Positions 8,738 through 62,100 of a DNA stretch of 64,000 bases are shown here, in pieces; the first letter of the stretch is position 1, and each line of letters begins with the position of its first letter. This DNA comes from Eledone cirrhosa (lineage: Eukaryota). The stretch is from the NCBI GenBank assembly GCA_964016885.1, contig OZ024742.1, positions 306,466,001-306,530,000 on the forward strand. Direction: 5' to 3'. Both the position numbers and the translations under genes were made by a program. Below the pieces are notes generated by a model. That model had not been told where the DNA came from, ran no database searches, and saw only the letters and a program-made list of their open reading frames with translations.

Positions 8738-8774
<37 letters not shown>

Positions 8775-8903
8775 GAAAACGATAAGTTGAAAAAAATGAA
8801 AACGAAAAACGAAATTTCATTTCTCACTCTTAGTATGGCACTTACTTAAATGTAAGTATGTATGTATACGTACATACATATATGTATACAGACGTACAGT
8901 AGC

Positions 8904-8956
<53 letters not shown>

Positions 8957-9109
8957 CATGCAGGTACACATACATATATGCACGCATCAGTTTAGCAGAC
9001 GCTTATTATAGCGCTGCTTTGTTCGTTTGTCAACAAACTGAACAGCCTGAATTTATGCCATACGGTGTTAAGGCAACCACGTCACCTTTTTGTTCAACAC
9101 TGACACAGG

Positions 9110-9154
9110 AACGATGTACTAGTTTCAAGCTTGTTAGCTATCTTCAGCACCGTT
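9110..9154 (-). ncRNA. Type I hammerhead ribozyme (family B, CUGAAGA core)
   Basis: AACGGTG-CTGAAGA-tAGCT aaca AGCTt-GAAA-CTAG-TA-CATCGTT. Confidence 0.82.
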
Positions 9155-9578
9155 TACCCATCTGCCAGATAGTTGAACGTTCGAAAGTATATACTTTCCT
9201 TATGAAAATTAACGGCTGAGCAGCCTAATTTGCATATTGAGTGAGTTAAATCGGTCAGGCATACCGAAAACGATAAGTTGAAAAAAATGAAAACGAAAAA
9301 CGAAATTTCATTTCTCACTCTTAGTATGGCACTTACTTAAATGTAAGTATGTATGTATACGTACATACATATATGTATACAGACGTACAGTAGCATGTAT
9401 ATATATATATATATATATATACATACATGCAGGTACACATACATATATGCACGCATCAGTTTAGCAGACGCTTATTATAGCGCTGCTTTGTTCGTTTGTC
9501 AACAAACTGAACAGCCTGAATTTATGCCATACGGTGTTAAGGCAACCACGTCACCTTTTTGTTCAACACTGACACAGG

Positions 9579-9623
9579 AACGATGTACTAGTTTCAAGCT
9601 TGTTAGCTATCATCAGCACCGTT
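9579..9623 (-). ncRNA. Type I hammerhead ribozyme (family B)
   Basis: AACGGTG-CTGATGA-tAGCT aaca AGCTt-GAAA-CTAG-TA-CATCGTT. Confidence 0.85.
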
Positions 9624-9833
9624 TACCCATCTGCCTGATAGTTGAACGTTCGAAAGTATATACTTTCCTTATGAAAATGAAATTTCGTTTTTCGTTTTCA
9701 TTTTTTTCAACTTATCGTTTTCGGTATGCCTGACCGATTTAACTCACTCAATATGCAAATTAGGCTGCTCAGCCGTTAATTTTCATAAGGAAAGTATATA
9801 CTTTCGAACGTTCAACTATCTGGCAGATGGGTA

Positions 9834-9878
9834 AACGGTGCTGATGATAGCTAACAAGCTTGAAACTAGTACATCGTT
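9834..9878 (+). ncRNA. Type I hammerhead ribozyme (family B, inverted unit)
   Basis: Same motif on +. Stem I is extended by ATGGG/CCTGT, CTGGCA/TGTCAG and GTTCAAC/GTTGAAC. Confidence 0.85.
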
Positions 9879-10107
9879 CCTGTGTCAGTGTTGAACAAAA
9901 AGGTGACGTGGTTGCCTTAACACCGTATGGCATAAATTCAGGCTGTTCAGTTTGTTGACAAACGAACAATGCAGCGCTATAATAAGCGTCTGCTAAACTG
10001 ATGCGTGCATATATGTATGTGTACCTGCATGTATGTATATATATATATATTTATATACATGCTACTGTACGTCTGTATACATATATGTATGTACGTATAC
10101 ATACATA

Positions 10108-10159
<52 letters not shown>

Positions 10160-11946: not shown

Positions 11947-12562
11947 CACACACACACATATATATATATATAAATATACAACCCGTGTGCGAATCGAGAT
12001 GTTTGAAAAGGTAAAAGGAAATATATATATAAATGTAATCTGAGTTTTTCGAATATTAATAATAACATTCGATTCGTTTGCAATTTTGCAAACAAGCCTC
12101 AATTTTATAGCCATGTCAGTAGAATGAACACTTCATTCTTGTGCTTGTGTTGGCATGCGAACAGAACTGCAGACACTCACGTTTCTGACTGATCAGCCAG
12201 TCTGCTAATATGCAAATCCGGCCGATCAGTCATTGTGTATTTTTGGAAAATAACAAATATTTTCACTAGCTCTGACAGTTTGGCAGGAGAACAGTGATCG
12301 AATGTTATTATTAATATTCGAAAACCTCAGATTACATTTATTGTATTCAGCCGTGTAGAGCTAAATTTTCCTTTTTATTTGAATTTGGCAAAGCCGGCCA
12401 TTTATCGCTTGTATACAGGAAACTGACTGACCAGTCAGCTGATATGCAAATCTGGCTGATCAGTGTATCTGCTAATATGCAAATCAGGCCGATCAGTCAC
12501 TGGGTATTTTTGAAAATAGCATATATTTTCACTACCTCTGACAGTTTGGCAGGTAAACAGTG

Positions 12563-12610
12563 AGCTGTACTGATGAAGGGTGATACCCAGAAACATTAGT
12601 GTCTGCAGTT
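12563..12610 (+). ncRNA. Type I hammerhead ribozyme (family C)
   Basis: AGCTGTA-CTGATGA-aGGGT gat ACCCa-GAAA-CATTAGTG-TC-TGCAGTT, with GUC cleavage triplet. Stem I is extended by TTGGCA/TGCCAA. Confidence 0.82.
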
Positions 12611-12734
12611 CCGTTCGCATGCCAACACAAGAGCAAGAATGAAGTCTTCATTCTACTGATATGGCTATAAAATTGAGGCTTGTTTGCAAAATTGCAAACG
12701 AATCGAATGTTATTATTAATATTCGAAAATCCAG

Positions 12735-16860: not shown

Positions 16861-17175
16861 TATATATATATATAAGTTACATCTGTACAAATACAGACGG
16901 TGTAATCAAGATTGTATCAACACTTAGATATAGAATAGGTAGACATGTAAGCATGCGAGAAACTACGAGTTTCCCTGTAAATTGAAAAATATGATTTTCG
17001 GATCTTAATGGACCCTCATCAGAAGACTTTTATATCACACCGTCAACCACAAGAAAACATGTATTTGTTGGGCATATATATGCCCATTCGCTCTTAGTAC
17101 TATTCTGAAATGGACATACAACTGTGTATGTACGGAGCGTGAGTTGGTAATTAATTAATAAATAACAATATATAT

Positions 17176-17413
17176 ATAAAAACAAATAACGAAACGAAAT
17201 TAAATTTCGTTTCGCTTCTAACTCACTTTTGTATGACTGACGCTTAAACAATTAAGTTAAAGTGTACATCTACATATGTATACGGAAGTATTAGTATGCA
17301 TATAAATACACACATGTATACATATGTACATGTACTCAGCTTTTCACTAGACACTTTACAGTGAGTGTCAGCTAGTCTGTATGTAACCACACAGGCGGAC
17401 TGGGTTTTAGAGT
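17176..17413 (-). repeat. Inverted partial monomer of the 469-bp repeat
   Basis: Reverse complement of the unit segment ACTCTAAAACCC...CGTTATTTGTTTTTAT; abuts a short (TA)n. Confidence 0.93.
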
Positions 17414-17442
17414 AAATATTATAGAGTAAATATTTTAAAGTA

Positions 17443-17487
17443 AATATTGCTGATGAGATGTAATAACATCGAAACTAGTCCAATATT
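17443..17487 (+). ncRNA. Type I hammerhead ribozyme (family A, first of 10 copies)
   Basis: AATATTG-CTGATGA-GATGT aata ACATC-GAAA-CTAG-TC^CAATATT: 7-bp stem I, canonical core, 5-bp stem II, palindromic CTAG stem III. Predicted cleavage after 17480. Confidence 0.95.
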
Positions 17488-17805
17488 CCTGTCTGGCCCT
17501 CTGGAGAATAGAGGAAATGTGTTTCCTTGAAAACTCGTATGACTCTAAAACCCGGTCCGCCTGTGTGGTTACATACAGACTAGCTGACACTCACTGTAAA
17601 GTGTCTAGTGAAAAGTTGAGTACATGTACATATGTATACATGTGTGTATTTATATGCATACTAATACTTCCGTATACATATGTAGATGTACACTTTAACT
17701 TAATTGTTTAAGCGTCAGTCATACAAAAGTGAGTTAGAAGCGAAACGAAATTTAATTTCGTTTCGTTATTTGTTTTTATCGTTTCCGCTGAACCGGTGCG
17801 TACAA

Positions 17806-17826
17806 TGACTCACGTTCTATGCAAAT
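17806..17826 (+). promoter_or_regulatory. AP-1-like TGACTCA and octamer ATGCAAAT in each family A monomer
   Basis: TGACTCA at 17806-17812 and ATGCAAAT at 17819-17826, repeating every 469 bp. The octamer is also kept in families B and C. Function is inferred only. Confidence 0.45.
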
Positions 17827-17880
17827 TAGTCTACCCACTACTAATTTTCATAGAAAAAGCATATGACGATATGTGCTTTT

Positions 17881-17978
17881 ACAATTCTCCAGAGAAGCCG
17901 GAAGATGGGTAAATATTGCTGATGAGATGTAATAACATCGAAACTAGTCCAATATTCCTGTCTGGCCCTCTGGAGAAT
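17881..17978 (+). ncRNA. Family A hammerhead with extended, bulged stem I (second copy)
   Basis: ATTCTCCAGAG pairs with CTCTGGAGAAT (11 bp) and AGATGGG with CCTGTCT. A TA(A) bulge precedes the AATATTG/CAATATT stem. Confidence 0.85.
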
Positions 17979-20900
17979 AGAGGAAATGTGTTTCCTTGAA
18001 AACTCGTATGACTCTAAAACCCGGTCCGCCTGTGTGGTTACATACAGACTAGCTGACACTCACTGTAAAGTGTCTAGTGAAAAGCTGAGTACATGTACAT
18101 ATGTATACATGTGTGTATTTATATGCATACTAATACTTCCGTATACATATGTAGATGTACACTTTAACTTAATTGTTTAAGCGTCAGTCATACAAAAGTG
18201 AGTTAGAAGCGAAACGAAATTTAATTTCGTTTCGTTATTTGTTTTTATCGTTTCCGCTGAACCGGTGCGTACAATGACTCACGTTCTATGCAAATTAGTC
18301 TACCCACTACTAATTTTCATAGAAAAAGCATATAACGATATGTGCTTTTACAATTCTCCAGAGAAGCCGGAAGATGGGTAAATATTGCTGATGAGATGTA
18401 ATAACATCGAAACTAGTCCAATATTCCTGTCTGGCCCTCTGGAGAATAGAGGAAATGTGTTTCCTTGAAAACTCGTATGACTCTAAAACCCGGTCCGCCT
18501 GTGTGGTTACATACAGACTAGCTGACACTCACTGTAAAGTGTCTAGTGAAAAGCTGAGTACATGTACATATGTATACATGTGTGTATTTATATGCATACT
18601 AATACTTCCGTATACATATGTAGATGTACACTTTAACTTAATTGTTTAAGCGTCAGTCATACAAAAGTGAGTTAGAAGCGAAACGAAATTTAATTTCGTT
18701 TTGTTATTTGTTTTTATCGTTTCCGCTGAACCGGTGCGTACAATGACTCACGTTCTATGCAAATTAGTCTACCCACTACTAATTTTCATAGAAAAAGCAT
18801 ATAACGATATGTGCTTTTACAATTCTCCAGAGAAGCCGGAAGATGGGTAAATATTGCTGATGAGATGTAATAACATCGAAACTAGTCCAATATTCCTGTC
18901 TGGCCCTCTGGAGAATAGAGGAAATGTGTTTCCTTGAAAACTCGTATGACTCTAAAACCCGGTCTGCCTGTGTGGTTACATACAGACTAGCTGACACTCA
19001 CTGTAAAGTGTCTAGTGAAAAGCTGAGTACATGTACATATGTATACATGTGTGTATTTATATGCATACTAATACTTCCGTATACATATGTAGATGTACAC
19101 TTTAACTTAATTGTTTAAGCGTCAGTCATACAAAAGTGAGTTAGAAGCGAAACGAAATTTAATTTCGTTTCGTTATTTGTTTTTATCGTTTCCGCTGAAC
19201 CGGTGCGTACAATGACTCACGTTCTATGCAAATTAGTCTACCCACTACTAATTTTCATAGAAAAAGCATATAACGATATGTGCTTTTACAATTCTCCAGA
19301 GAAGCCGGAAGATGGGTAAATATTGCTGATGAGATGTAATAACATCGAAACTAGTCCAATATTCCTGTCTGGCCCTCTGGAGAATAGAGGAAATGTGTTT
19401 CCTTGAAAACTCGTATGACTCTAAAACCCGGTCCGCCTGTGTGGTTACATACAGACTAGCTGACACTCACTGTAAAGTGTCTAGTGAAAAACTGAGTACA
19501 TGTACATATGTATACATGTGTGTATTTATATGCATACTAATACTTCCGTATACATATGTAGATGTACACTTTAACTTAATTGTTTAAGCGTCAGTCATAC
19601 AAAAGTGAGTTAGAAGCGAAACGAAATTTAATTTCGTTTCGTTATTTGTTTTTATCGTTTCCGCTGAACCGGTGCGTACAATGACTCACGTTCTATGCAA
19701 ATTAGTCTACCCACTACTAATTTTCATAGAAAAAGCATATAACGATATGTGCTTTTACAATTCTCCAGAGAAGCCGGAAGATGGGTAAATATTGCTGATG
19801 AGATGTAATAACATCGAAACTAGTCCAATATTCCTGTCTGGCCCTCTGGAGAATAGAGGAAATGTGTTTCCTTGAAAACTCGTATGACTCTAAAACCCGG
19901 TCCGCCTGTGTGGTTACATACAGACTAGCTGACACTCACTGTAAAGTGTCTAGTGAAAAGCTGAGTACATGTACATATGTATACATGTGTGTATTTATAT
20001 GCATACTAATACTTCCGTATACATATGTAGATGTACACTTTAACTTAATTGTTTAAGCGTCAGTCATACAAAAGTGAGTTAGAAGCGAAACGAAATTTAA
20101 TTTCGTTTCGTTATTTGTTTTTATCGTTTCCGCTGAACCGGTGCGTACAATGACTCACGTTCTATGCAAATTAGTCTACCCACTACTAATTTTCATAGAA
20201 AAAGCATATAACGATATGTGCTTTTACAATTCTCCAGAGAAGCCGGAAGATGGGTAAATATTGCTGATGAGATGTAATAACATCGAAACTAGTCCAATAT
20301 TCCTGTCTGGCCCTCTGGAGAATAGAGGAAATGTGTTTCCTTGAAAACTCGTATGACTCTAAAACCCGGTCCGCCTGTGTGGTTACATACAGACTAGCTG
20401 ACACTCACTGTAAAGTGTCTAGTGAAAAGCTGAGTACATGTACATATGTATACATGTGTGTATTTATATGCATACTAATACTTCCGTATACATATGTAGA
20501 TGTACACTTTAACTTAATTGTTTAAGCGTCAGTCATACAAAAGTGAGTTAGAAGCGAAACGAAATTTAATTTCGTTTCGTTATTTGTTTTTATCGTTTCC
20601 GCTGAACCGGTGCGTACAATGACTCACGTTCTATGCAAATTAGTCTACCCACTACTAATTTTCATAGAAAAAGCATATAACGATATGTGCTTTTACAATT
20701 CTCCAGAGAAGCCGGAAGATGGGTAAATATTGCTGATGAGATGTAATAACATCGAAACTAGTCCAATATTCCTGTCTGGCCCTCTGGAGAATAGAGGAAA
20801 TGTGTTTCCTTGAAAACTCGTATGACTCTAAAACCCGGTCCGCCTGTGTGGTTACATACAGACTAGCTGACACTCACTGTAAAGTGTCTAGTGAAAAGCT

Positions 20901-21920
20901 GAGTACATGTACATATGTATACATGTGTGTATTTATATGCATACTAATACTTCCGTATACATATGTAGATGTACACTTTAACTTAATTGTTTAAGCGTCA
21001 GTCATACAAAAGTGAGTTAGAAGCGAAACGAAATTTAATTTCGTTTCGTTATTTGTTTTTATCGTTTCCGCTGAACCGGTGCGTACAATGACTCACGTTC
21101 TATGCAAATTAGTCTACCCACTACTAATTTTCATAGAAAAAGCATATAACGATATGTGCTTTTACAATTCTCCAGAGAAGCCGGAAGATGGGTAAATATT
21201 GCTGATGAGATGTAATAACATCGAAACTAGTCCAATATTCCTGTCTGGCCCTCTGGAGAATAGAGGAAATGTGTTTCCTTGAAAACTCGTATGACTCTAA
21301 AACCCGGTCCGCCTGTGTGGTTACATACAGACTAGCTGACACTCACTGTAAAGTGTCTAGTGAAAAGCTGAGTACATGTACATATGTATACATGTGTGTA
21401 TTTATATGCATACTAATACTTCCGTATACATATGTAGATGTACACTTTAACTTAATTGTTTAAGCGTCAGTCATACAAAAGTGAGTTAGAAGCGAAACGA
21501 AATTTAATTTCGTTTCGTTATTTGTTTTTATCGTTTCCGCTGAACCGGTGCGTACAATGACTCACGTTCTATGCAAATTAGTCTACCCACTACTAATTTT
21601 CATAGAAAAAGCATATAACGATATGTGCTTTTACAATTCTCCAGAGAAGCCGGAAGATGGGTAAATATTGCTGATGAGATGTAATAACATCGAAACTAGT
21701 CCAATATTCCTGTCTGGCCCTCTGGAGAATAGAGGAAATGTGTTTCCTTGAAAACTCGTATGACTCTAAAACCCGGTCCGCCTGTGTGGTTACATACAGA
21801 CTAGCTGACACTCACTGTAAAGTGTCTAGTGAAAAGCTGAGTACATGTACATATGTATACATGTGTGTATTTATATGCATACTAATACTTCCGTATACAT
21901 ATGTAGATGTACACTTTAAC

Positions 21921-21951
<31 letters not shown>

Positions 21952-25290: not shown

Positions 25291-28105
25291 CTAACAGTGC
25301 TGCGATCGAATGTGGCTTTTTAGCCCAGCCAATGATCTAAAATGTCTTGCACAGAGTCGGCAACCAAAACATTTACTGGGAATAGTCGGCTGTGGTTGGA
25401 GTTCGTGTACTTTTGCATGTCGCTTGAGTCCTCCTGCTGATTTACATTCTCTACCACATGTTTGGCAAGCATGATGAGTAGCATCTCCAACAGCAGCCTG
25501 GTAGTCAACCACTGGTCTTACTTTATGACTGCGAAGATGACTTTCGAGTCCAGCTTTGCTTAGGCAGAGTCTCGCACAGACGCTGCATGTCAGAAACATA
25601 GGAGGACCCTCGCCGTCTGGAAGTGCAACAGCAATACCCTTCCTCACGTCCCGCTTTACTTTCTCGTGTGCGATTCGAGATGCCTCAAAGGCAACTTTTC
25701 CCTCATATACAGTCTTTCTCCATTTATTACGATCAGCAGCAATATTTTCCCATGTATCAGCAGAGATGTTAGCGTCTTTCAGAGAGGCCTTCAAGGAATC
25801 CTTATACCTCTTTTTTGGTTTATGTGGCGGTCGTTTTCCTTTAACCAACTCTCCATAGAAGAGTTGTTTTGGTACTCTAGAATCCTTCATCCTGGCAAGG
25901 TGACCACTCCAACGGAGTCGCTGCTTAAGCACAAGAGCTTCTATACTGTCACACATAGAGCTTTCCAAAATCTCGACATCACTGATGTGGTCCCTCCAGC
26001 GAACGCCATGTATCCGTCTGAGACACATCTGATGGAAACGCTCCAATTGCTTAAGGTGGCGTCGATATGTGACCCAGGTCTCGCAGGCATAAAGAAGACA
26101 AGAGAGTACACATGCCCTGTACACCCTTACCTTTGTCCTCCTGCATATGTCTCGCCGACCCCAGAGTCGCCTTTCTAGCTTTCCGAAAGCATCACTTGCT
26201 TTCCTAATCCTAAGTGAGATCTCACTGTCAAGGTTGCCGTATCGATTGACAGTGCTTCCCAGGTAGACAAACTGATCAACCACTCCAAGTCGTTTGCCAT
26301 ACACATAGATGTTTGGTTCAGTGTACTGCCCACCAGGTGCAGGTTGGTACATGACGACGGTTTTCTTGAGACTGACAGTCAAACCCAGGGCAGTGCAAGC
26401 GTCAGAAAATACATTCAAAATGTGCTGCATATCACTCTCTGTGTGCGCTACAAGATCGCAATCATCTGCATACAAGAGGTCTCTTATGACTGATGTAAAT
26501 ACTTTTGTCTTCGCAGCAAAGCGCCTGATGTTAAATATGCTGCCTGAGGTTCGATATCGGATGTAAACACCATGCTCGCAATTCCTGAATGCAATACAGA
26601 AAACCATTGCAAAGTATATGGCAAACAGGGTCGGTGCTGGAATATCCCCCTGTTTCACTCCATTTTTTACTGAGATAGGCTCCGACATGTTACCTCCGAC
26701 ATTAACCCAAGCCTTCATGTCGTCATGGAAAGACCTAACTAAAGCAAGGAACTTATCAGGGCAACCAAGTTTCTGGAGAACCTTCCATAATGCATCTCTG
26801 TTGACAGTATCGAAAGCCTTTGTCAGATCGACAAAAACCTGATACAGATCCAAGCCCTGTTCAATGCACTTCTCCTGGAGCTGTCTAGCTGAGAAGATCA
26901 TATCAGTAGTGCCGCGTCCAACACGAAAACCAGATTGACTTTCAGGAAGGACACAATCTGCAATGTGTGTCAGCAGACGGTCCAGAAGCACCCTACATAA
27001 AACTTTCCCCACGACAGAAAGCAATGATATACCTCTGTAGTTCCCACAATCATTCCTGTTACCCTTTCCCTTGTACAAGACCACCATTACTGCATCTCTC
27101 CAGTCCTCAGGCACGGATTCATTAGCCCATATCCTTCCAAACAGAGAGTGAAGATGTTGCAGGAGTCTCTCACCACCATATTGTAGGAGCTCAGCATGTA
27201 TGCCATCCATACCTGGAGATCTTCCACTGTTCAGCTTCGAAATAGCCACTGCAACCTCCACAAGTGTCGGAGGTTCTGCGAGAGCTACTTTCACAGGACT
27301 TTCCGGAATGAGATTGAGGAAATCTTCACTGACGACAGACGGCTGATTCAAAAGATCATCAAAGTGCTCTCGCCACCTTCGTAGAATTCCCTGTGAGTCA
27401 CGAAGAAGTTCTTTGCCATCCTTGCTGCGAATCGGTGTCACCAGAGAAGAACACGGTCCATAAACCTCACGCAAGAGACTGTACAACAGCTTTGTGTTAT
27501 TGCAATCAGACGCAGTTTGTATCTCACCAGCCTTCTCACTCCACCACTGATCCTTCATCTGAGAAAGACTCCGCCTAACACGTGATTTTACATCCCTGAG
27601 CTCCTCATGCAACGTATTCCTCTCCTGTGGTCTTGCCGTCAAGTAGCGTGACAGAGCGCGCCTCTTATCAGCCAACAAGTCATCTATATGCACATCCTTC
27701 TCATCAAACCAGTCCTGATGTTTTCTCTGCACCAATCCCAGAACACGTCTGCCTACATCATAAACCGACTTTTTAAGAGTCGGCCAATCCTCACCAAGAT
27801 CTGCAGCCTGCATCTCTTCTTCCAATGTCCTCTTCACATTTTTATCCTTAAGACGAGCAGCATTCAATCTTTTGGGCAGGGCAACACCAGGAGCCCGGAT
27901 TTTACGTTTGGTGATTAGATTCACTTTTGCGCGTACCAGGCGGTGGTCCGTCCAGCACTCAGCTCCACGAAGAACACGAACACACTGCACATCCTGTCTG
28001 TCACGCATCCTGACTAGGACGTAGTCCAAAAGATGCCATTCCTTAGATGCAGGATGCATCCATGTGGTCTTGAATTTGTTCTTTTGTTGGAACATGGTGT
28101 TGGTA
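25291..28105 (-). mobile_element. 5'-truncated RTE-type LINE; open ORF with endonuclease C-terminus, RT and three C2H2 zinc fingers
   Basis: TTWMHP..WHLLDY...TDHRLV (APE end); GRSPGMDGI, NYRGISLL, QSGFR, FVDLTKAFD, GVKQG, LLYADD; LRWSGH; three CxxC-x12-HxxxH motifs. The stop is followed by a (TG)n tract. The N-terminal residues of the called ORF come from the flanking microsatellite. Confidence 0.95.
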
Positions 28106-28169
28106 ACATATATATATACATACACAGGCGCATGGGCGTGGAACTAGGTGTATGTTAAGCAATATATAC

Positions 28170-30059: not shown

Positions 30060-30227
30060 TAGAAGTGGTTACACAACAGTTAATTCACCATACCGAGAAC
30101 AATTGTTTCACCTTAGCGGATCCTCAGGTCGTACGGAATAGGTTCTTGAACAGTACGAGGTGAGGTTCCGCTAAGGTGAAACAATTGTTCTCGGTATGGT
30201 GAACTAACTGTTGTGTTACCACTTCTA
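30060..30227. repeat. Fold-back element with a decayed hammerhead motif in each arm
   Basis: Arms of ~65 bp are reverse complements. The minus strand reads CTGAGGA-tCC gctaa GGt-GAAA-CAATTG-TT-CTCG. Confidence 0.65.
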
Positions 30228-33420: not shown

Positions 33421-33471
33421 AGATTCTACAGGACTAGAACTGTTTCATTCATTAGAAATCATCAGGAATCT
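33421..33471 (-). ncRNA. Type I hammerhead ribozyme
   Basis: AGATTC-CTGATGA-tTTC taat GAAt-GAAA-CAG ttctagtc CTG-TA-GAATCT. Confidence 0.75.
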
Positions 33472-34305
33472 GGGTATCAAAAAATAAAAATGGTATTTAT
33501 AGGTCTCTACAAGTGGTAGGAGAGGGTGGGGAGTGGGATGGGTGCAGGTCATTGGTTGATAGAAAAGGGAATTCATTAAAAGCTAATTCTACAAAGCTAT
33601 AGTTTATTTTTATTTATTTATGTTTTTAGAGTAACAAGGGCAGACAGAATTCTATAAACAGGTTCCGGATGGCATACCATTCCTTGTCATTAAGTTTCTC
33701 TTAAGCTAACAGATGTCTATAAAATCAGTGGGGGGTCAGTCATGGTCGATAGAATTAAAGAAAAGGGAGATTCTTTAAAAGCTAAAATCATTAAGGTTCT
33801 ACTAAGTGACAAAGGTCTAGAGAATTCTGCAGACAGATTCAAAATACTGAGTGCCTATCTTACTATTATCTTCGAACTTCTCTTAAACTAATCAACTATA
33901 TGCCAAAAATCAACAGACACATCACAAAAAAACAAAAAAACATGCTCACTCACACACTTACGCGCAACCATAAACACACACACAAACACATATACACACA
34001 TAAAAACACACACACATATATAAAAATATATTCATATACATACATATACATACACACATACATACATACATACATATATATATATAAATATATATATATA
34101 CATATATCTATAAGTATATATACATATATACACACACATATATATATACACATACACACACACATACACATACATACACACACACACACATATATACACA
34201 TATAAATACACTCACACACATACATACAAACACAAATATACATGTGTATACATATACACACAAATACATATAGACATATATACATACATATACACAGACA
34301 CATAT

Positions 34306-34341
<36 letters not shown>

Positions 34342-34401
34342 ACACACATACATACATACACATATATATACACACACATATATATACACACACATACATA
34401 T

Positions 34402-34454
<53 letters not shown>

Positions 34455-34686
34455 TACATACACACACATATACATATATATATTAAAAAAAACCATACAC
34501 ACACATATATACATATACACACACATACACACAAACACACACACACATATATATACACATATACATATATATATACATTCATATATATAACCATATACAT
34601 ATATACATATATACACATACATATATATATATATATATACACATAAACAAATATATACACATACAAACACACACACACACATACAT

Positions 34687-34739
<53 letters not shown>

Positions 34740-34780
34740 CACACATATACACATATATAAGGAAAAAGCACCATACATAC

Positions 34781-34899
<119 letters not shown>

Positions 34900-34964
34900 T
34901 ACACATATACACACATATATACACACACCCATACATATACATATATATACACATATATATACAC

Positions 34965-35025
<61 letters not shown>

Positions 35026-35074
35026 AATATATACATATATATAAAAATATACACACATATACATACACACACAC

Positions 35075-35150
<76 letters not shown>

Positions 35151-35377
35151 AAACACACATACAAACATACATATACACATACAAATATATAAACATATAT
35201 ATACACATATATACACGTATGTATATACATATATATATATACATATACATATATATATATACACATATATATATACATATATATATACATATATACACAC
35301 ACATATACATATTATATATACACATATACACACACATACACACACACATATATACACATTTTTATTTTTTGATACCC

Positions 35378-35428
35378 AGATTCCTGATGATTTCTAATGA
35401 ATGAAACAGTTCTAGTCCTGTAGAATCT
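35378..35428 (+). ncRNA. Type I hammerhead ribozyme (inverted twin of 33421-33471)
   Basis: Identical motif on +, with a 6-bp stem I and a closed CAG/CTG stem III. Confidence 0.75.
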
Positions 35429-36229: not shown

Positions 36230-38165
36230 TTATACTTCTCTTAGGTCAGTGTTGTTTGTTTGGGTGTTGTTGTTGTTCCACTCATTCTTTCTGTTTAGCT
36301 TTGGTCTTCTAATTTCTATTTCACTGGCCTCTCTGATTTGCCTATCTGCTGGGTCATTCCTATGTTTAGATATTATTCTAATTTCTATGTTGTCTATGTT
36401 ACCGTCATGTTGTTGTCTAGCATGTTCGTATAGTACTGACTCGTTTTTTCGTCCTTTTAGTTCCCCCCAGTGTTGGTCTATCCTTTCACCTATGCTACGA
36501 GCTGTCTCACCTATGTATGTTGTTGTCATGTTTCTGCAAGTACCCTCTGTACATCTTATGCTATAGACTACGTTTCTAGTTTTACAGTTTATCCGGGGGT
36601 TCACCTTACATATGATACACTTCCTATTGGTACAGTGGGTTTTCTTAAAAGGCTAGGTTTTGCTGATCAGGAATTTTATGGTGGTTCCTGGCTTTTCTAC
36701 CACCTTTATTTTTAAGTGGGTCTTTCTCAGGGCCTTTCTACACTGGTTAGCTAATTTCCCTCCAGGGGTGGCGTCCACAAACATGACACTCTGATATCTC
36801 TGGTTGTCGTACCATGATGTGGCCTTCCCTATCTTATGTCTAGCCCTATCTAAGCTATTCCATGATTTGCTCCTCCTGTATAGTGGGCAGATTCCTTTCA
36901 TGTCCAGTTCTATGAGGGTCTTATACTTTTCCATGGCTCCTTCGTATACTCTGACTCTGTCTCTTTGGTTGTAGCCAGAGAACTGCATGCGGTTGATGAA
37001 GTGTTGGATGTGTCCTTCCATTTCTGTTGGGTCGCACATGCTGGACACATTCTTCATCATTCGTACCAAATCTGCGATCAGAATATTAAACTTAGCACTA
37101 CTGGACATTGCTGAGTTTTTTAGTATCAGGTATTTGGAGGCCATGGGTTTAGCATAGTGTGAGTGGAGAATTTGGGCTCTTTCATCTGTAGTGTTAATCC
37201 AGAGTTCTGTGTGTAATACAGGTAGCCTATTGTTAGGGTGTTTGGAAGGGAAGTCTATAGTTACAGTTATACTCTGGTGTATGGAATTAGCTATCTGCTG
37301 GATGCTTTCCATCGTGCTACGTTCTAAATCAAACTTGTTAGTGCTCTCTAGTGGGGGTGTTCTTATAACTATATTGATATCATCTACATAACGAGAGTAC
37401 ATGATGAGGTCTATGGAGCTTTCATTAAGGAGATCTTTAAGTCTCCTTTCCCACCATACCATGAAAAGGTTGGCAACATCACCAGCTATGCTGACGCCGA
37501 TGGCTGCTCCCTCATTTTGGGTGTAGATTTTCTCATTGAACTTAAATATGTGGCCCTTTAGGGTAGTTTTGATACTAGCCCCTATTGCATGTGCGACCAT
37601 TTTTCTTACCTGATCAGTGTTTTGGGGGGTCCGTATGGCTTTGGTCCACCCAATCCACCTTCCTATGGGAGTCTTTTTAGCCATTGAGGTTATGGTGGGG
37701 GGTCTACCTCTTATAGGTCTACTAGGGCAGAAACATCTAAGGTCATGGCTGTCTAGGTAGTCAGTGTCGTAGGTAAGTCTAAGTAGGAGGCCCAGTTCGT
37801 CTGTGTCGACGTCGCAGAACTCCACCTCACTCTCAATGATCATCTCCACACATCTTTTCACAGCAAAATCAATGTTAATGGATGGGTACAGTGACACTAC
37901 ATCCATGCTGCCTATTATGCAGTTGGATAGGCTCCTGTTTTTGTTGCACTCACTGATTCTGCTGAGGAGGTCCACTGTACGTTCACATACATCTGGGGAC
38001 ATCTTGATTATGGGGCGTATAACCACTGAGAGGAAGTAGGAGATCCTGTAGTTTCTAGCTATATTAGCTCCGCATACGTGTCTTGTTGGTGGTCCTGTTG
38101 TCGGGTCGTCGACTGTCTTGTGGTCTTTGCGGAGCCCATACAAGGGTGGTATGCCATTGTTAGAT
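36230..38165 (-). mobile_element. 5'-truncated Penelope-like retroelement (RT + GIY-YIG), one frameshift
   Basis: YGLRKDHK, SMDVVSLYPSI, QNEGAAIG, YSRYVDD, HYAKPMAS; then NVVYSIRC...YIGETARSIGERIDQH...R.IRE...LNRKNE. Confidence 0.93.
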
Positions 38166-38675
38166 GCCTATATATATATAGTTTCATTGACAAGTATATT
38201 AATGTGCACAGTCACGTAGATATATTGCCCTTCGTATGACAGTGTGATTTTAGCTCAATGTAGGATAACTAGTATACTACAGAGCCGTTATTTTTTGTTG
38301 TTGTTTGATCATGCTGAGTAACCCCGTCACTCATTTCTTGCTATCCTCTCTCAACCTTCTTATGATCTATTGGTCCATTTATGTGATAAACTGTTGATGT
38401 AAATTTTTATGACATTATATGCGTCATGCATTGTGTGTTTTTCTATATAGCGTTGGCGTTGGGGCCCCCCTACTTGTCCTTTATCCTTGTTCTGGTGGAT
38501 GAGATCGATGGAGCCTGCAACCTTTGATACATTTTTGTTTATAAGCTCTGATGGATCCTGCCAAAGGGTATGTATGAAACACTGTTAGCAAATAAAACAA
38601 TGTATTTCTAAGCACTCTTTGGTTATTCCTAAACTTATATATATATATATATATAACTATACATATATATATATG

Positions 38676-44993: not shown

Positions 44994-46778
44994 TAGAATT
45001 TTGTCATTTATTTTGTCTGACCTGTTTAGCTTAACTTATTTTGGGGCTTAGGTTGTTAATGCCCTCTTGACCGCCTTCTCAGCTTGTATGGCGTTTATAA
45101 CCTATGTTTATAGCTCTGGGTTTTTTTACCATAGGAGCGGTTGCCAGCATGACTCTAAATTTGCGTTACGTTCCGCTTTTTCTACCCGCCGAAATGTGAT
45201 TCTCGCTAAATTTATATCTGTATTAATCTCCCGAGTCTTACAATTAACCTGTTAATAATCTATTGACAGATTAATTGTAAAAGTTTATTTTAAAACTACC
45301 CAGTTGAATGCTTATTCGATTTGTGCTATTTATGCAATTTTTGCATGATTTACACATACTGAATTCATTTGCCAAATTCTGTGGGGCTTTTCCCCTTGTG
45401 AGTTACACATGTGCTTTTACAAAACACTACGTCATTCACAACACTGGCGCAGAACAAAATACCTGTTGATAACGTGATATTCCTCGCTGGATCATTATAC
45501 CAAAAGCTTATGGCTTTAAGCAGACAGTATTATTAATTTAGGTGTCACAGAAACCCGCTTTGGATTTTACCATCAATTCTAGGGGTCCAGGTTAGTTATC
45601 CATCCTGATGCTGAGGAGGATATTAGAGGGAGCTAGAGCAAAGTGCCTTCCTGCGGTCATGGTTTTCATTGACTTTAGGAAGGTCTTTGATTCTGTGGAC
45701 CGTCACTGCCTGATGAAGATATTACAGGCTTATGGAATCCCCAAGAAGATAGTGGACCTGATATCACTTCTCTACACCAACACCAAAGCCCAAGTCATTA
45801 CACCTGATGGGATGACAAAGTTCTTTGAGATACTGGCTGGAGTGCTCCAGGGAGATACATTGGCTCCCTACCTTTTTATCATCGTAGTGGACTATTGTAT
45901 GCGCCTTGCACTGGAGAAACACCAGGACTCTGGCTTTACTGTAGCACCGGCTCAGAGCAGGAGAGTTAAGGCGAAAAAGGTATCAGATGCTGAATTTGCC
46001 GACGACATAGTTTTGGTGACAAATACAGTGAAGGAGGCAGAGGATTTGATGCGGGAGGTTGAGACTGTGTCGATGAGTATGGGGCTGAGAATGAATGAGA
46101 CTAAAACAAAATATCTGGTAGAGAATGTTGAGAAGCCAGGGGGGATCACTAATGTAGGCGGAAAGCCACTAGAATTGGTTGAGGGCTTCCTGTATTTGGG
46201 ATCAAAGATTGGGAATACGGAAGATGATGTGGTTGAGAGGAAGAGCAAAGCCTGAGCGGCGTGCCACAGCGTGAGATCGGTGTGGAAGTCGGACCTTAGT
46301 ATAGACCTGAAAATCCGCCTCTTCATTGCTGTAGTGGAGTCTGTGCTGCTGTACGGGTCTGAGACTTGGACAGTGACCAAGAAACTCACTCAGATGGTGG
46401 ATGGGTGCTACACGAGAATGCTGAGGATGGCTCTGAACATTAATCAGTATACACTGAGGATGAAAAACTCAGAGCTATATGGGAGCCTCCCAAAAGTCAG
46501 CTCAAAAGTGACACAGAGGAGACTGAGGTTAGCTGGACATTCTCACCGACATCCAGAGTTAACATTGCACTCAGTGCTCCTGTGGGAGCCCCTACATGGA
46601 CACACTGGAAGAGGAAGACCAAGGTTAACGTATGTTGATGCCCTAAGGACAGACACTGGTCTGTTGGAGACGCAGGCATGGCAACAATAATGAGGGACAG
46701 AGACCGCTGGAGAGAACTCGTCCATGGATCTCGGGAATTTTACCCGCCCTAGATATAGATAGATAGGTTAGTTATATA

Positions 46779-49559: not shown

Positions 49560-49867
49560 ATATTAAAATACAAATATTAATAAAATAGATGTTCTTTTGA
49601 TCAATTAAATTGTATTATACATATTTCAAAGGTACAACAGTACGTCCTCATCAGACAAAATATAATGATACATGACATACCCTGAGATGTTAAATGGTTA
49701 AGATTTAATCTACCTTGATTAAATCTTAACTATTTAACATCTCAGGGTATGTCATGTATCATTATATTTTGTCTGATGAGGACGTACTGTTGTACCTTTG
49801 AAATATGTATAATACAATTTAATTGATCAAAAGAACATCTATTTTATTAATATTTGTATTTTAATAT
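49560..49867. repeat. Near-perfect 308-bp palindrome (~151-bp arms, 6-nt loop), each arm with a hammerhead-like motif
   Basis: Arms match with one visible mismatch around the loop TACCTT (49711-49716). CTGATGA-GGACGTAC tgtt GTACCTTT-GAAA-TATGTA-TA at ~49773-49811. Confidence 0.88.
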
Positions 49868-54190: not shown

Positions 54191-55490
54191 AGAGCCATTC
54201 CAAATCGTGCGTTCCATCCGTCAGGGAGGCCCTCTATCCTCCATTCTGTATGTACTGACTATGGAGCCGTTACTGCGGAAGTTGGAGCTGTTGCAGGGCA
54301 TCCCGCTCGAACCAGGACTGCGGAAAGCAGCGTCGGCCTATGCCGACGACATAACCGTAATGGTGTCGAAAACCTCGGAAATCGGGGTAATCGCAAAGGA
54401 ATACGAAATGTCGGTTTGCAACTCGGCACATGGAGAGGAAAACCCATGCCTTCCGACAGTGTCGTTGGACGCTGGACGGAAGGACCGGTGAAATTGCTCG
54501 GGGTCTGGTTTGGTCCAGACCTCCAGGTGGACAAGAACTGGAACGAGGTCACGGCGAAGGTGTTTGCACTCACCCAGAAGTGGGCTGAGTGCAAACTCTC
54601 CTTGAAAGGTCGAGCGGAGGTGTCGAACACTTACATAACGTCCGTCATCTACTACCGCTTGACAGTCGTGCCTTGCCCCCTGCGAATACCTTACCAAAAT
54701 GGGACGCCTACTCTTCAAGTTCCTCTGGAAGAAATAGGGTCCATTGGTGAGGAGATCCATCTGCTGTCAACGCCCTTCTAACGGAGGGCTGGGCATGCTG
54801 TGGCTGATGATGCGAAAACACACGCTGAGGCTACGCCATCTCCAGGTATTCCTAACCGGTGAACCAGTGTGGCTGTCGTTTGTGAGACAAGCTCTTCCAC
54901 AACTCATCTCACTAACAGAGCTGCAGTCCTGGGTCAAGGGAAGACCGAAAATGAGTGCCTACAGGCGCTCACAACCCTCTACCAAGCAGAAACGGCAATC
55001 AGCGGAAACTCCACTTCGACATTCTATATGGGATTAGTGGAGGATAAGTGCGACGATGTTCTCGGGGAAACTCTAGGCATGGAGGAGGACGAACTGACCA
55101 ATCTGTCCGGGAGGACTTTCCGTCCAGGGCCTATGGATAACTTCCAGAGGTCTCTGGCCTGGCAGTGCTACCGAGGAGCTCTACCAGTTCGAGACAAAAT
55201 CTACAGGCACGGACGCCCTGGCAGTGATCCGGCCAAAACGACCTGTCGAAGATGCGAGCAGGACATCGAAACCGTTCTGCACGCAATTGTTCAGTGCCCA
55301 TGGATGACCGACGTGTGGAATTATGTCGAACAGCTACTATCACGTGTGGGACGCATCCAGTTGTCAGCCGAGTCAATCGTGAGGATTACCCCGCCGCCTT
55401 CATTTAAGAACGAAGGAGAGGGGGTTGGTTTCTCTAAGTTTCAAGCCCTTAGAGGGCGAAAATTTACTTTCCAATCTCAAAATTGAAAAA
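54188..55490 (+). mobile_element. Tx1/L1-clade LINE 3' fragment (RT C-terminus + zinc-binding domain), frameshifted
   Basis: RSIRQGGPLSSILY, AYADD, VKLLGVWF, LSLKGRA, GGLG, CRRC...ETVLHAIVQC. Confidence 0.9.
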
Positions 55491-58600: not shown

Positions 58601-59150
58601 AGGGAGCCAAAGCTGTTAGCTGGGCCTGAGAGGCAGAGGCGAAATGTGGCTACAAATCCACAATTCGATCTTTGCAAGACAAAGATGGATGCATTCTACT
58701 TGAATCCAAGCAGATATGCACGGCCTTCCGCAGCGCTTTTCACAACTGTTCGAACAAAGCAGTACAACGAGCGAGGTGATGGACTTCAGTTCCTACTCCG
58801 ACGGCCTACCACGAGTCTCGAGCATGAATGCAGAGAGCAGCGAAAGGCCGATCACAGCGTGCGAAATACATGATGCCCTAGGCTGGTGTGGGAAACGCAA
58901 ATCACCTGGTTTAGATGGTCGACCCTATGAGTTTTACATAGGCATGCCAGACTCAGGAGGATTACCAGTTCTGTAGGCAGAGGCGTAGTAACGCTGATCA
59001 GGAAAGATGAGTACAAGAGGCATGAGATAAGCAATTTCAGGCCCATAAGTCTGCTCAACACAGAGTTATAGATTTTGGCCAAGGTGTTAGCAACGAGGCT
59101 GGCGCTTGTCGTCGAGAACATGTTAGGGGAAGCGCAAACGTGTGTAATCC
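55700..59150 (+). mobile_element. Decayed Tx1/L1-clade LINE: ORF1 remnant + endonuclease + RT N-terminus
   Basis: ORF2 begins MATIQIGCLNVRGL (57574); SRSYLD, SDH, GPGYWKL, KSPGLDG, NFRPISLLN, ILAKVLA. The ORF1 region is homologous to the minus-strand copy (PNTNIWWIL, MKPERI). Confidence 0.88.
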
Positions 59151-62100
59151 CGACTTTCGCAGCAGTGGATCGAGAGCCAGCACACACAGAAGGGAGGAGA
59201 GAGCACACCCCTGTCGGATGGACCGCGCGATTTGGAACGGCTCCGAGGGGTAGCCGTTCCCCTTGACCCTCGAGCAGATGCGGCTGCTGTGTATGGCAGT
59301 AATCCAGCCCCTCAAAACGGGTCTGAATCCTGCCGCCGTTATCACCGCATCCAGGTAACCATGGTCGACCCTATCAAACGCCTTAGATTGATCCAAGTTG
59401 ATCAGGGCCCCACCAAAGCCGGGTTCATTCCCTACCTTCTCTATGATGTATCGCTTGTGGGGGAGGTTGTCGTGAATGGACCTGGACGGGATAACGCATG
59501 TCTTTGCATCTCCCACCAGGTTGCCCACGACAAGCGCCAACCTCTTTGCTAACACCTTGGCCAAAATCTTTAACTCCGCATTTAGCAGAGTTATGGGCCT
59601 GAAATTACTTATTTCATCCCCTTTGTTCTCGTCCTTCCTCACTAGCATCACTACGCCCTTGGTCACAGAACAGGGAATTCTTCCGTTCTGTTGCCAGATG
59701 CAGTAGACCGCCTCGAGGAGATCGGAGAAAAAGTTCGGCATCGCTACATAAAGTTCGTATGGAAAACCATCGAGACAAGGGGATTTGCATTTGCCGCATT
59801 GGCTAAGCACCTCCCCTATTCCAGCAGTTGAAATTGGCCTTTCGCAGGACTTCGCCTTCTCGTTCGAAAGACGCCGTAGGCCGTCGAAGTTTGGACCGAA
59901 ATCCACACCCCATCCGGCCCCCGCACTTCCGAACAGTCGTGCAAAGTGCCTTTGAAAGGCTTCACACATAAGTCCATCCTGGTCCTTCAAAGACCGGATA
60001 GTGGATTTAATCCCTTTTTGGCTACTGTCACGTGGGGCCAGCTAACAGCTTTGGCCTCCTCGTTTCTTAGAGCACGTATTTTGCTTCTGACAACGCAGCC
60101 TTCGTGCTTCGCGTCGAAAAACTGGTCTAAGGCCGTTCTCGACGCTAGCACTCTGGCTACGTTGCCGCTTCTAATCGCCTCTTCTACTCTATCTACCAAA
60201 TCCCTTTCCTTCCTATTCCTATCTGAGGCTAATTCCTTACTAAAACCTATCGAGACTACTCTAATCTCTCTCTTGAGAGAGCCCCACCACCTGCTGTTGA
60301 CGATAGCCCCCGTCAACCGTTCCTTAATTAAAGTGCTAATCTGATCCCGATAAGCTTTACATGCCGGTAAGGACAAGTTCAGCTTCCAGTAACCGGGTCC
60401 CTGTCTATGCGTTCTATCAAGGTTGACTAAGCAGGTCATTAATTTGTGATCTGAATAGCCAACCATGCGCATCTCTAGACAACTTAGTAGGTCCCTATCC
60501 TTATTTCTAACTAGGGCCCTATCTAGGTACGACCTAGATGATCCGCTGCGGTTAGTCCAAGTCCAGGTTGGCGCAGTCGGAAAATCTAGTCGATATCTAT
60601 CGGCCAGGTCAAATCGGCCGATTAATCGTTAGAGGCTGTTACACCCCACTCTATCGGGACATGCCCCTACATAGTCTCAACGTGCATCTAGCATACCTTT
60701 CTAGTTCTCCACTAAAAGGAAGGGGCGGGACGTCCCTAGAAAAGTCTCCAGACGTTGGAAGAAGTGCGGCCTCACTGCCCTAAAAGGCGGCGACCTAAAA
60801 GGCGGCGACCATAGGCGGCGACCAACCTAAAGGCTCCACCTTCACCACTGCCAACGTCTAGTACCACCAGTCGACCATCCGGGTCCAAGTGCACCGTCTG
60901 CGTTGCGAGGACAAGGTGTTTTTGTGGCAGAACGACAACCCCCACCCCCACCTCCTGGCTGACAGAGAGATGCATAGATCTCAAAGTCGTTAAAGGTGGG
61001 GGATAGCTGGCGTTCACTGCTGACCCTGGACTCGCACATAGCCATGACATTTATACTGAGCGACCTGAGGTCATTTAGACGTTTTGCCTGCTTCCAGAGT
61101 GAGCTCAGTACACGCGCATTCAAACATACTACTCTCAATACAGCCATGTTGGCGGCGAAGGGGAAGAAAAAGAAAAGTCACCTACCTTCTTATGTCTCGG
61201 GGACCGGGCTGCGCAACTTCCATGGGGGTCAGGGCGGGGTTGTTAGGTGGGGTGGTGGTTTGTGGTGGGGTGGGGACATCATCAGAGTGTGGTGGGGTTG
61301 GGGAGTTTGGTGTGATGTGGGTGTCTGGGGGCGGCGGTGGGGAAATTTTTCAAGAGGACGCGGTTCATTGGTTTTACACAGGAGGGGGGGGGGGAACACG
61401 TCCTCAGGAAAATTGTCTTTTAGTTCTATATCGGAGTTTTAATCATTTTTAAAGAGGGGTTCTCTGTGTCCCTCGTGAAATTTGGCCCTTCGGTTTGCAC
61501 CGAGGGGTTTTGTTCAATTTTGTTTACAAGTTTTATATTTTTTGTGTTGAAGTATGTGTATAGCTGTGTCTGTGTAATTTTTGTTGGTTTTTGTTCTTGT
61601 TTTGGGGATGGGTTATTTTTTTTGTGTGGGTGCGGTGTGTTTTCTTTTTTTGCGCTTTATTTTTTGGAAGGGTTCCCCCTCGTCTTCTGACGTTAAGGTA
61701 TCCTCTTCCATGTTGGAGAGGAGGGGTATATTTTGGGGTTTTGTTATGTATGTTGTTGGAGTTGTTTTAGGTGGAGAGGGGTTGGGTGGGACCATGTTCA
61801 GTTTTTTTGTTGACTTGTTGTGTTTGTTGTTTTGGGGGTGGTGGTGGTGATTGTGTTTTTGTTTGTGGAGTTGTTTTGGATGTGGAGGGGTTGGGTGGTC
61901 CGTGTTCAGTTTTTTGTTGACTTGTGTTTGTTGTTGTTGTTGTGGTGATGGTGGTGGTGATGTTTTAGGAGGTGTTGGCAGTAAAGGTTTTTTATATTGT
62001 TAAGGACAGGCAGCCCTCAGGTGACCTCTGCCTCAACAGAGGTAGCAAGCGGGCCGCCTACCCTCAACTGCAATGTTCATAAATTGGCAGCATTCCAGGG

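Follow-up and report, generated by a model that had tools for sequence, protein, structure and literature searches.

A host U6-type promoter motif in tandem hammerhead retrozymes: a likely internal promoter

Three families of hammerhead retrozymes hold, in their repeat units, a motif of the host U6 type together with a TATA box. This pair is likely to be an internal promoter, probably one read by Pol III, with a predicted start about 16-28 nt before the ribozyme; we would give this reading a probability of roughly 0.6. The window, that is, the whole 64-kb stretch of DNA that was analysed, contains members of the three families, here called A, B and C. An earlier, preliminary description had proposed that each monomer carries a promoter related to those of snRNA genes. 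The identity of the motif with that of the host U6, U6atac and MRP genes, and its conservation in copies chosen blind to the octamer, speak for an internal promoter of this kind. Two parts of the proposal are to be given up: the motif is not of the distal type, being proximal (-77), and many hammerhead families are without the cassette.

Repeat families and their arrays

17440..21925, + strand: family A tandem array, 9.6 units of 469 bp with one type I hammerhead each; ten cores
17176..17413, - strand: inverted, 5'-truncated A arm, ending at a T5 run joined to (AT)n
17912..17956, + strand: minimal type I hammerhead of A, cut predicted after 17949; stem III is the palindrome ACTAGT
17773..17777, + strand: T5 run, a candidate leaky Pol III terminator and the commonest 3' end of A insertions
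9675..10117, + strand: plus-strand arm of family B
8770..9681, - strand: minus-strand arm of family B, unit of 469 bp, with two cores (9616, 9147) and an octamer (9235-9228)
9688..9721, + strand: T5/T4/T7/T4 cluster ahead of the B promoter
9834..9878, + strand: minimal type I hammerhead of B; predicted cut after 9871
12366..12376, + strand: T4/T5 runs ahead of the C promoter region
12562..12611, + strand: type I hammerhead of C; predicted cut after 12603

Family B is present as an inverted pair of arms and C as a partial copy of a 430-444 bp unit. The cores of A, B and C have the layout of type I hammerheads by sequence, and stems I and II are recovered in folding; an Rfam scan gave 0 matches at the gathering score. 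Family A is dispersed and of high copy number (1108 candidate copies on first look), and no ORF of 150 aa is found within its array. A, B and C are taken as non-LTR retrozymes, a class of dispersed, non-coding tandem repeats in which units of 150-500 bp each hold a type I hammerhead. The homology of A and B is patchy, with 68-76% identity, and A and C have no alignable similarity.

The octamer cassette

17818..17829, + strand: U6-type proximal element TATGCAAATTAG of A, recurring each 469 bp up to 21571; matrix score 17.1
17841..17853, + strand: imperfect inverted copy of the octamer element in A, containing TAATTTTCATA; predicted hairpin partner, z -5.5
17860..17866, + strand: TATA-like box of A, CATATGA here and CATATAA in 8 other copies
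17891..17892, + strand: predicted transcription start of A, 30 nt past the TATA box, placed by the host spacing
17806..17812, + strand: TGACTCA, subfamily-specific and unconserved
17898..17904, + strand: CCGGAAG, unconserved and not in B or C
17842-17852 (A) and 9777-9787 (B): TAATTTTCATA
9752..9763, + strand: U6-type proximal element TATGCAAATTAG of B; matrix score 20.5
9795..9800, + strand: TATA box of B, within the palindrome GAAAGTATATACTTTC; predicted start 9825-9827
12476..12487, + strand: U6-type proximal element TATGCAAATCAG of C; matrix score 17.2
12443..12454, + strand: upstream repeat of the octamer element in C, with another piece at 12210
12520..12527, + strand: TATA-like box of C; predicted start 12551-12552

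In the window sequence, ATGCAAAT octamers start at 17819 (A), at 9753 (B) and at 12477 and 12444 (C), and the CTGATGA cores at 17919, 9841 and 12570, which gives octamer-core distances of 100, 88 and 93 nt. These positions and distances agree with the preliminary description, as does the presence of TGACTCA, TAATTTTCATA and CCGGAAG at their sites. It had also placed a TATA-like box in A and B; both boxes exist, and the limitation to these two families falls away since C has one as well. The supposed fixed distance between octamer and ribozyme is not borne out, as it varies from 88 to 100 nt in A, B and C and from 90 to 107 nt in two further families. The spacing from octamer to TATA is steadier, at 42-45 nt in A, B and C, and the extended motif can be written as TATGCAAAT(T/G/C)AG followed by a TATA box. 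In the A copy at 17860-17866 the box has the variant form CATATGAC, and 8 of the 9 A copies in the window have CATATAAC.

The octamer occurs 16 times in the 64-kb window (4.9 expected), nine of these in tandem A copies. Beyond the four sites given above, the additional ones are eight more A copies, 9228-9235 on the minus strand, which lies 88 nt ahead of a CTGAAGA core at 9147, and 12210. As for the earlier statement that the cassette precedes each ribozyme, it is true of A, B and C; no site accompanies the cores at 17022 (-) and 49773 (+) or the family with cores at 33465 (-) and 35384 (+).

Relation to host promoters

The motif ATGC(A/T)AAT(T/G)AG is present at -76 to -78 in 4 of the 18 U6 matches listed, namely the two best-scoring genes and two genes of a tandem array on contig C19; the sites thus represent three loci (C5, C9 and the C19 array). 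At -77, the motif is also found in the best of six U6atac loci, as ATGGAAATTAG, and in the only MRP gene, as ATGCAAATGAG, giving a consensus of ATG(C/G)(A/T)AAT(T/G)AG at -76 to -78 in host U6, U6atac and MRP promoters, all five of which have a TATA box at -30. The U6 and U6atac matches without the motif (14 of 18 and 5 of 6) are presumably retrocopies. A matrix built on the five host sites, picked as presumed functional genes, scores 17.1 bits in A, 20.5 in B and 17.2 in C, to be compared with 11.8-18.7 bits for the host sites when each is left out in turn; none of 751 background windows from this 64-kb stretch reaches 17.1. The proximal element of A has 15 nt of identity to a host U6 promoter, and A and the U6 promoter on C9 have TTCTATGCAAATTAG in common.

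On eight distinct U1/U2 promoters the U6-type matrix gives only 1.0-7.3 bits, and the motif is absent from all eight. Their own shared motifs are a TCAGT box (-56 to -58) and AATTA (near -90). A matrix for this type scores 2.7 bits in A, 2.7 in B and 7.9 in C, against 10-16 in the host promoters and a background 95th percentile of 7.7; the U1/U2-type motif is therefore at background level in A and B and marginal, near the 95th percentile, in C. The match in both matrix score and position argues that the element is a copy of the host proximal U6/U6atac/MRP motif and not a distal enhancer octamer. The octamer had originally been likened to that of snRNA distal elements; the host site is at -77, and in A, B and C the octamer lies 42-45 nt ahead of TATA and not some 200 nt before the start. 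TAATTTTCATA, TGACTCA and CCGGAAG are all outside the host promoter consensus.

The prediction failed for a held-out RNase P gene, which has no U6-type motif. This RNase P RNA gene (G000:C24:12936134-12936474) has an upstream box of the U1/U2 type, AAATCAGTGG, and a T10 tail, with no octamer. The host seems to have two classes of snRNA-type promoters, and the combination of a U1/U2-type box with a T10 tail implies that these classes are seemingly not split simply by polymerase.

Several further observations on the host genes can be added. Vertebrate Pol II snRNA genes are generally described as TATA-less; a TATA-like box at about -32 was found by pattern in 7 of 8 host U1/U2 promoters (loci L051, L053, L083, L115-L125). 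In some U6 copies the octamer element lies far upstream: it is at -275 in L045, and in two copies of the C19 array, L037 and L038, an insertion has shifted it. A U1 gene (L125, G000:C2:180972044-180975207) has a family A insertion in the 1 kb or so ahead of it, and the contig of the window also holds, about 0.8 Mb away, a U2 tandem array with a period of about 2.2 kb (G000:C3:307349256-307453739).

Distribution of the cassette in the genome

A search of the 3.0-Gb genome for an octamer followed after 75-105 nt by a hammerhead core returned 21,513 pairs, and 2 for the reversed control. Without the octamer requirement, a core pattern gave 90,489 matches (960 in the control), so that, as far as two different patterns can be compared, about three quarters of the cores are without a perfect octamer at that distance. 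Among 50 loci (30 + 20) taken from the first 100 cores listed, A, B and C copies have the site unless truncated, and several families do not, including a tandem family with a 311-bp unit. The cassette is therefore the mark of a subset of families and not of every ribozyme. The extended motif was found in three of the four octamer-core matches scored outside A, B and C, these three belonging to two further families (15.5-20.0 bits); the fourth, L130, with a matrix score of only 6.0, was dropped as a cassette family.

The octamer-free families have features of their own. In the 311-bp family (L166-L171, L194; G000:C1:1239857-1244284), CTATAAG is found about 50 nt ahead of the core, CCAAT lies upstream in relatives and a T4 run follows shortly past the ribozyme; judged by these motifs, it possibly has an internal promoter of the Pol II type. 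In the window, a 1.3-kb (AT)n tract is bordered on its two sides, in opposite orientation, by copies of a different hammerhead-like family (cores 33465 - and 35384 +; 33459-35420). This family is very abundant genome-wide, without the octamer, and has TATAAAT about 40 nt upstream. At L044 (G000:C10:48072680-48072786) the 3' end of a U6 copy is fused to the 3' part of this same family, a junction that is possibly a Penelope-made chimera. Further cassette-free, hammerhead-like cores are located in the window at 16990-17030 (-), 49610-49820 and 30100-30135 (-), the cores 49654 (-) and 49773 (+) forming an inverted repeat.

Conservation of the cassette

Thirty C copies and 30 copies of B2, an older B subfamily, were chosen by ribozyme sequence only; they are the first 30 of 1915 and the first 30 of 1653, and a few of them are the two arms of one insertion. 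Among the copies that cover the site, the octamer is perfect in 15 of 19 (C) and 21 of 25 (B2). Deviations from the column majority amount to 4/152 cells in C and 4/200 in B2, 8/352 in total, against 107/1237 in the 30 nt upstream (47/534 and 60/703). The octamer is thus less deviant than the bases upstream of it, which is the opposite of what the preliminary description had named, as regards conservation, among the signs that would refute the promoter. Between TATA and ribozyme, deviations are 90/1172 in C and 136/1122 in B2. The stretch from element to TATA is variable in C (67/667), and in B2 the 28 nt past the element are conserved like the octamer (22/748). No variant in the octamer or TATA columns is common to three copies in the C and B2 samples.

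Among 90 distinct A cassettes, CATATAA occurs in 85, TAATTTTCATA in 83 and the octamer in 84, the last figure being inflated because most A loci were found with promoter-containing queries. CCGGAAG (55/90) and TGACTCA (26/90) are ruled out by these counts as conserved elements.

It could be imagined that the cassette descends from an ancestral promoter, such as that of a Penelope pseudo-LTR, and persists only as a relic, the arrays owing their transcription to outside read-through. The homology of A and B implies that their cassettes are not independent captures, the samples within families are small and related, and the large share of cores without a perfect octamer at this distance would also suit such a relic. 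Against it, octamer and TATA are constant while the flanks differ among subfamilies and families, and in C the octamer element is repeated two to three times per unit. We therefore consider a mere relic improbable.

Pairing of the element in RNA

Apart from one mismatch, TAATTTTCATA is the reverse complement of TATGCAAATTA. In folding, the element pairs with its own inverted copy in A, B1 and B2, at 11 of 12 positions in A. The cassette folds with z values of -5.5 (A) and -2.6 (B), and the TATA boxes also lie within hairpins. The motif might accordingly act in the RNA, as one arm of a hairpin that serves to compact the circle or to bind the machinery of transposition. The partner arm, however, is TAATTTTCATA in A and B1, TAATATGCATA in B2 and missing in C; the octamer stays constant while its partner drifts, so there is no covariation. 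Furthermore, the matching host element lies upstream of the gene and is untranscribed there. A role at the RNA level is thus very unlikely, and the comparison of the arms is better fitted by an octamer that would be a protein-binding site, also folded away in the RNA, than by a pairing constraint. TAATTTTCATA is ruled out as a PSE: host promoters are without it, B2 has it in altered form, and it is complementary to the arm with the octamer.

Insertions, templates and the polymerase

The 3' ends of A insertions fall at two sites in 39 of 42 cases, 23 of them directly after the T5 run and 16 about 70 nt earlier (two of the entries repeat an insertion). Exact T5-(AT)n junctions number 2017 genome-wide. 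Among the arms at the first 90 of these, 64 extend beyond the predicted start; the octamer is included in 59, and 31 continue for more than one unit further. Arms that reach past the start and the octamer point to a circular or multimeric template with the promoter inside, and the multi-unit insertions with a fixed 3' end are compatible with either. As for a fossil trace of the start site, the 5' ends of 83 closed arms are not clustered at the predicted start (2/83, expected 2.5) or at the cut site (3/83, expected 2.3); the excess that the first 30 arms seemed to have at the cut site was gone with 90. That 3' ends cluster at T5 does not prove an end made by Pol III, since those of B lie 6-8 nt beyond T7, the second cluster is away from a T-run and there is AT microhomology at the junction.

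Inverted 5'-truncated arms, fixed 3' ends and (AT)n targets make up a Penelope-like anatomy; inverted arms and (TA)n targets are described for Penelope-like elements in passages of PMC8557442. The window also contains retrotransposon reverse transcriptase (RT) frames with Pfam RVT_1 or zf-RVT matches at 25291-28143 (-), 36653-38167 (-), 45596-46255 (+), 54863-55486 (+) and 59055-60041 (-). The 950-aa RT frame has C2H2 zinc-finger matches at its C-terminus too.

A promoter within the template requires that T-runs are read through, by a leaky Pol III or by Pol II. The same octamer-TATA cassette might therefore be read mainly by Pol II, or by both, as is reported for newt satellite 2, in which case multimers would be made directly and T-runs ignored. 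Copied templates pass the T5 in A, and B has a T7. The octamer-TATA spacing of 42-45 nt is unlike that of the host promoters (46-48 nt in 5/5), and, according to PMC7949045, the PSE-TATA spacer of U6 is critical, a 5-bp change inactivating it. The same source attributes to the compact human H1 promoter both Pol II and Pol III activity, each octamer-dependent, and newt satellite 2 is cited as a Pol II case in PMC2220036 and PMC6765202. On the other hand, the extended motif matches U6, U6atac and MRP and not U1/U2, and a T5-T7 run stands shortly ahead of the promoter in all three families. Reading chiefly by Pol II is therefore rather doubtful, though it should be kept in mind.

Other features of the promoter region can be described as follows. 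No PSE-like block between octamer and TATA is shared across A, B and C; the host promoters have CCT at about -62 in 4/5 (by eye) and no clearly common block, and this CCT is not kept in A, B and C. The first T4 past the predicted start comes at +352 (A1), +333 (B1) and +221 (C, full unit), but this scarcity of T-runs in the body does not reach significance when compared with dinucleotide shuffles (P 0.14-0.31, by family).

If the cassette is an internal, U6-type promoter, a POU-type factor and TBP would bind it and transcription would begin 30 nt past TATA, at 17891-92, 9825-27 and 12551-52. Most transcripts would end at the T-run just ahead of the promoter of the next unit, and a read-through fraction would reach the next ribozyme. 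Two ribozyme cuts would then free a monomer with the promoter inside, able to circularise, which a Penelope-type reverse transcriptase may copy into (AT)n targets, beginning at a fixed site. In the new tandem copy, the promoter would once more stand ahead of a ribozyme. Tentatively, this could be taken further: a gene-external Pol III promoter of the U6 type may have become internal and heritable in a circular-RNA replicon, folded away in hairpins, with leaky T-runs setting the share of short RNA and multimer. The more than 20,000 cassettes, several hundredfold more than the host U6 genes, could then compete for POU and Pol III factors.

Comparison with known systems

The source of the high RNA levels of animal retrozymes is left open in the relevant parts of PMC7229834 and 10.64898/2026.07.22.740005. 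The three families offer a candidate answer, with predicted starts, two motifs that can be mutated and one question of polymerase. In addition, the host U6-type promoter is now defined (octamer at -77, TATA at -30, apart from U1/U2) and could serve for guide-RNA expression in this animal group. In the literature searched, outside of which most subscription papers fall, there is no U6-type promoter in a retrozyme and no cephalopod U6 promoter. Since there are precedents for the idea of a promoter and a ribozyme in each unit, the surprise is limited; the variant here is the U6-type motif.

The promoter of newt satellite 2 is made up of an octamer and a PSE, and that of schistosome Sm-alpha is of the tRNA-derived A/B-box type. 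Newt satellite 2 is alike in layout, its tandem units each holding one hammerhead along with an internal promoter of the snRNA type; this promoter is read by Pol II, as cited in PMC2220036 and PMC6765202, whereas the motif described here is of the host U6/U6atac/MRP kind and not U1/U2. In the account of PMC6765202, Sm-alpha and the Penelope pseudo-LTRs have a promoter and a ribozyme in each tandem unit, the upstream unit driving the next. The hammerhead SINE Sm-alpha, a Pol III case there, is also alike in having the promoter before the hammerhead and in the 3' part of the cleaved monomer. It differs in that a gene-external octamer-TATA promoter of the U6 type is carried here within the unit.

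The metazoan non-LTR retrozymes resemble A, B and C in their short, non-coding tandem units and type I hammerheads, and a circular intermediate with Penelope-driven mobility has been proposed for them (PMC7229834; 10.64898/2026.07.22.740005, in the parts of both that treat these units). In the text of PMC7229834 covered here, no endogenous promoter is named and 'promoter' means the T7 promoter only; the word is absent from the main part of 10.64898/2026.07.22.740005, the supplements of which could mention one. Penelope-like pseudo-LTRs share the internal promoter with a tandem hammerhead, the inverted 5'-truncated arms and the (TA)n targets, and differ by the coding region, absent here, and by the promoter, a U6-type one being undescribed in those parts of PMC6765202 and PMC8557442 that concern them.

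Finally, the type 3 Pol III promoters (U6, 7SK, H1), as treated in the pertinent sections of PMC7949045, have likewise an octamer and a TATA box at -30, and the compact layout is like that of H1, with its octamer at -97 to -90. The host promoters depart from this type in having the octamer at -77 and no clear PSE, and the retrozymes in a spacing 2-5 nt below that of the host and in a promoter that lies within the transcribed repeat.
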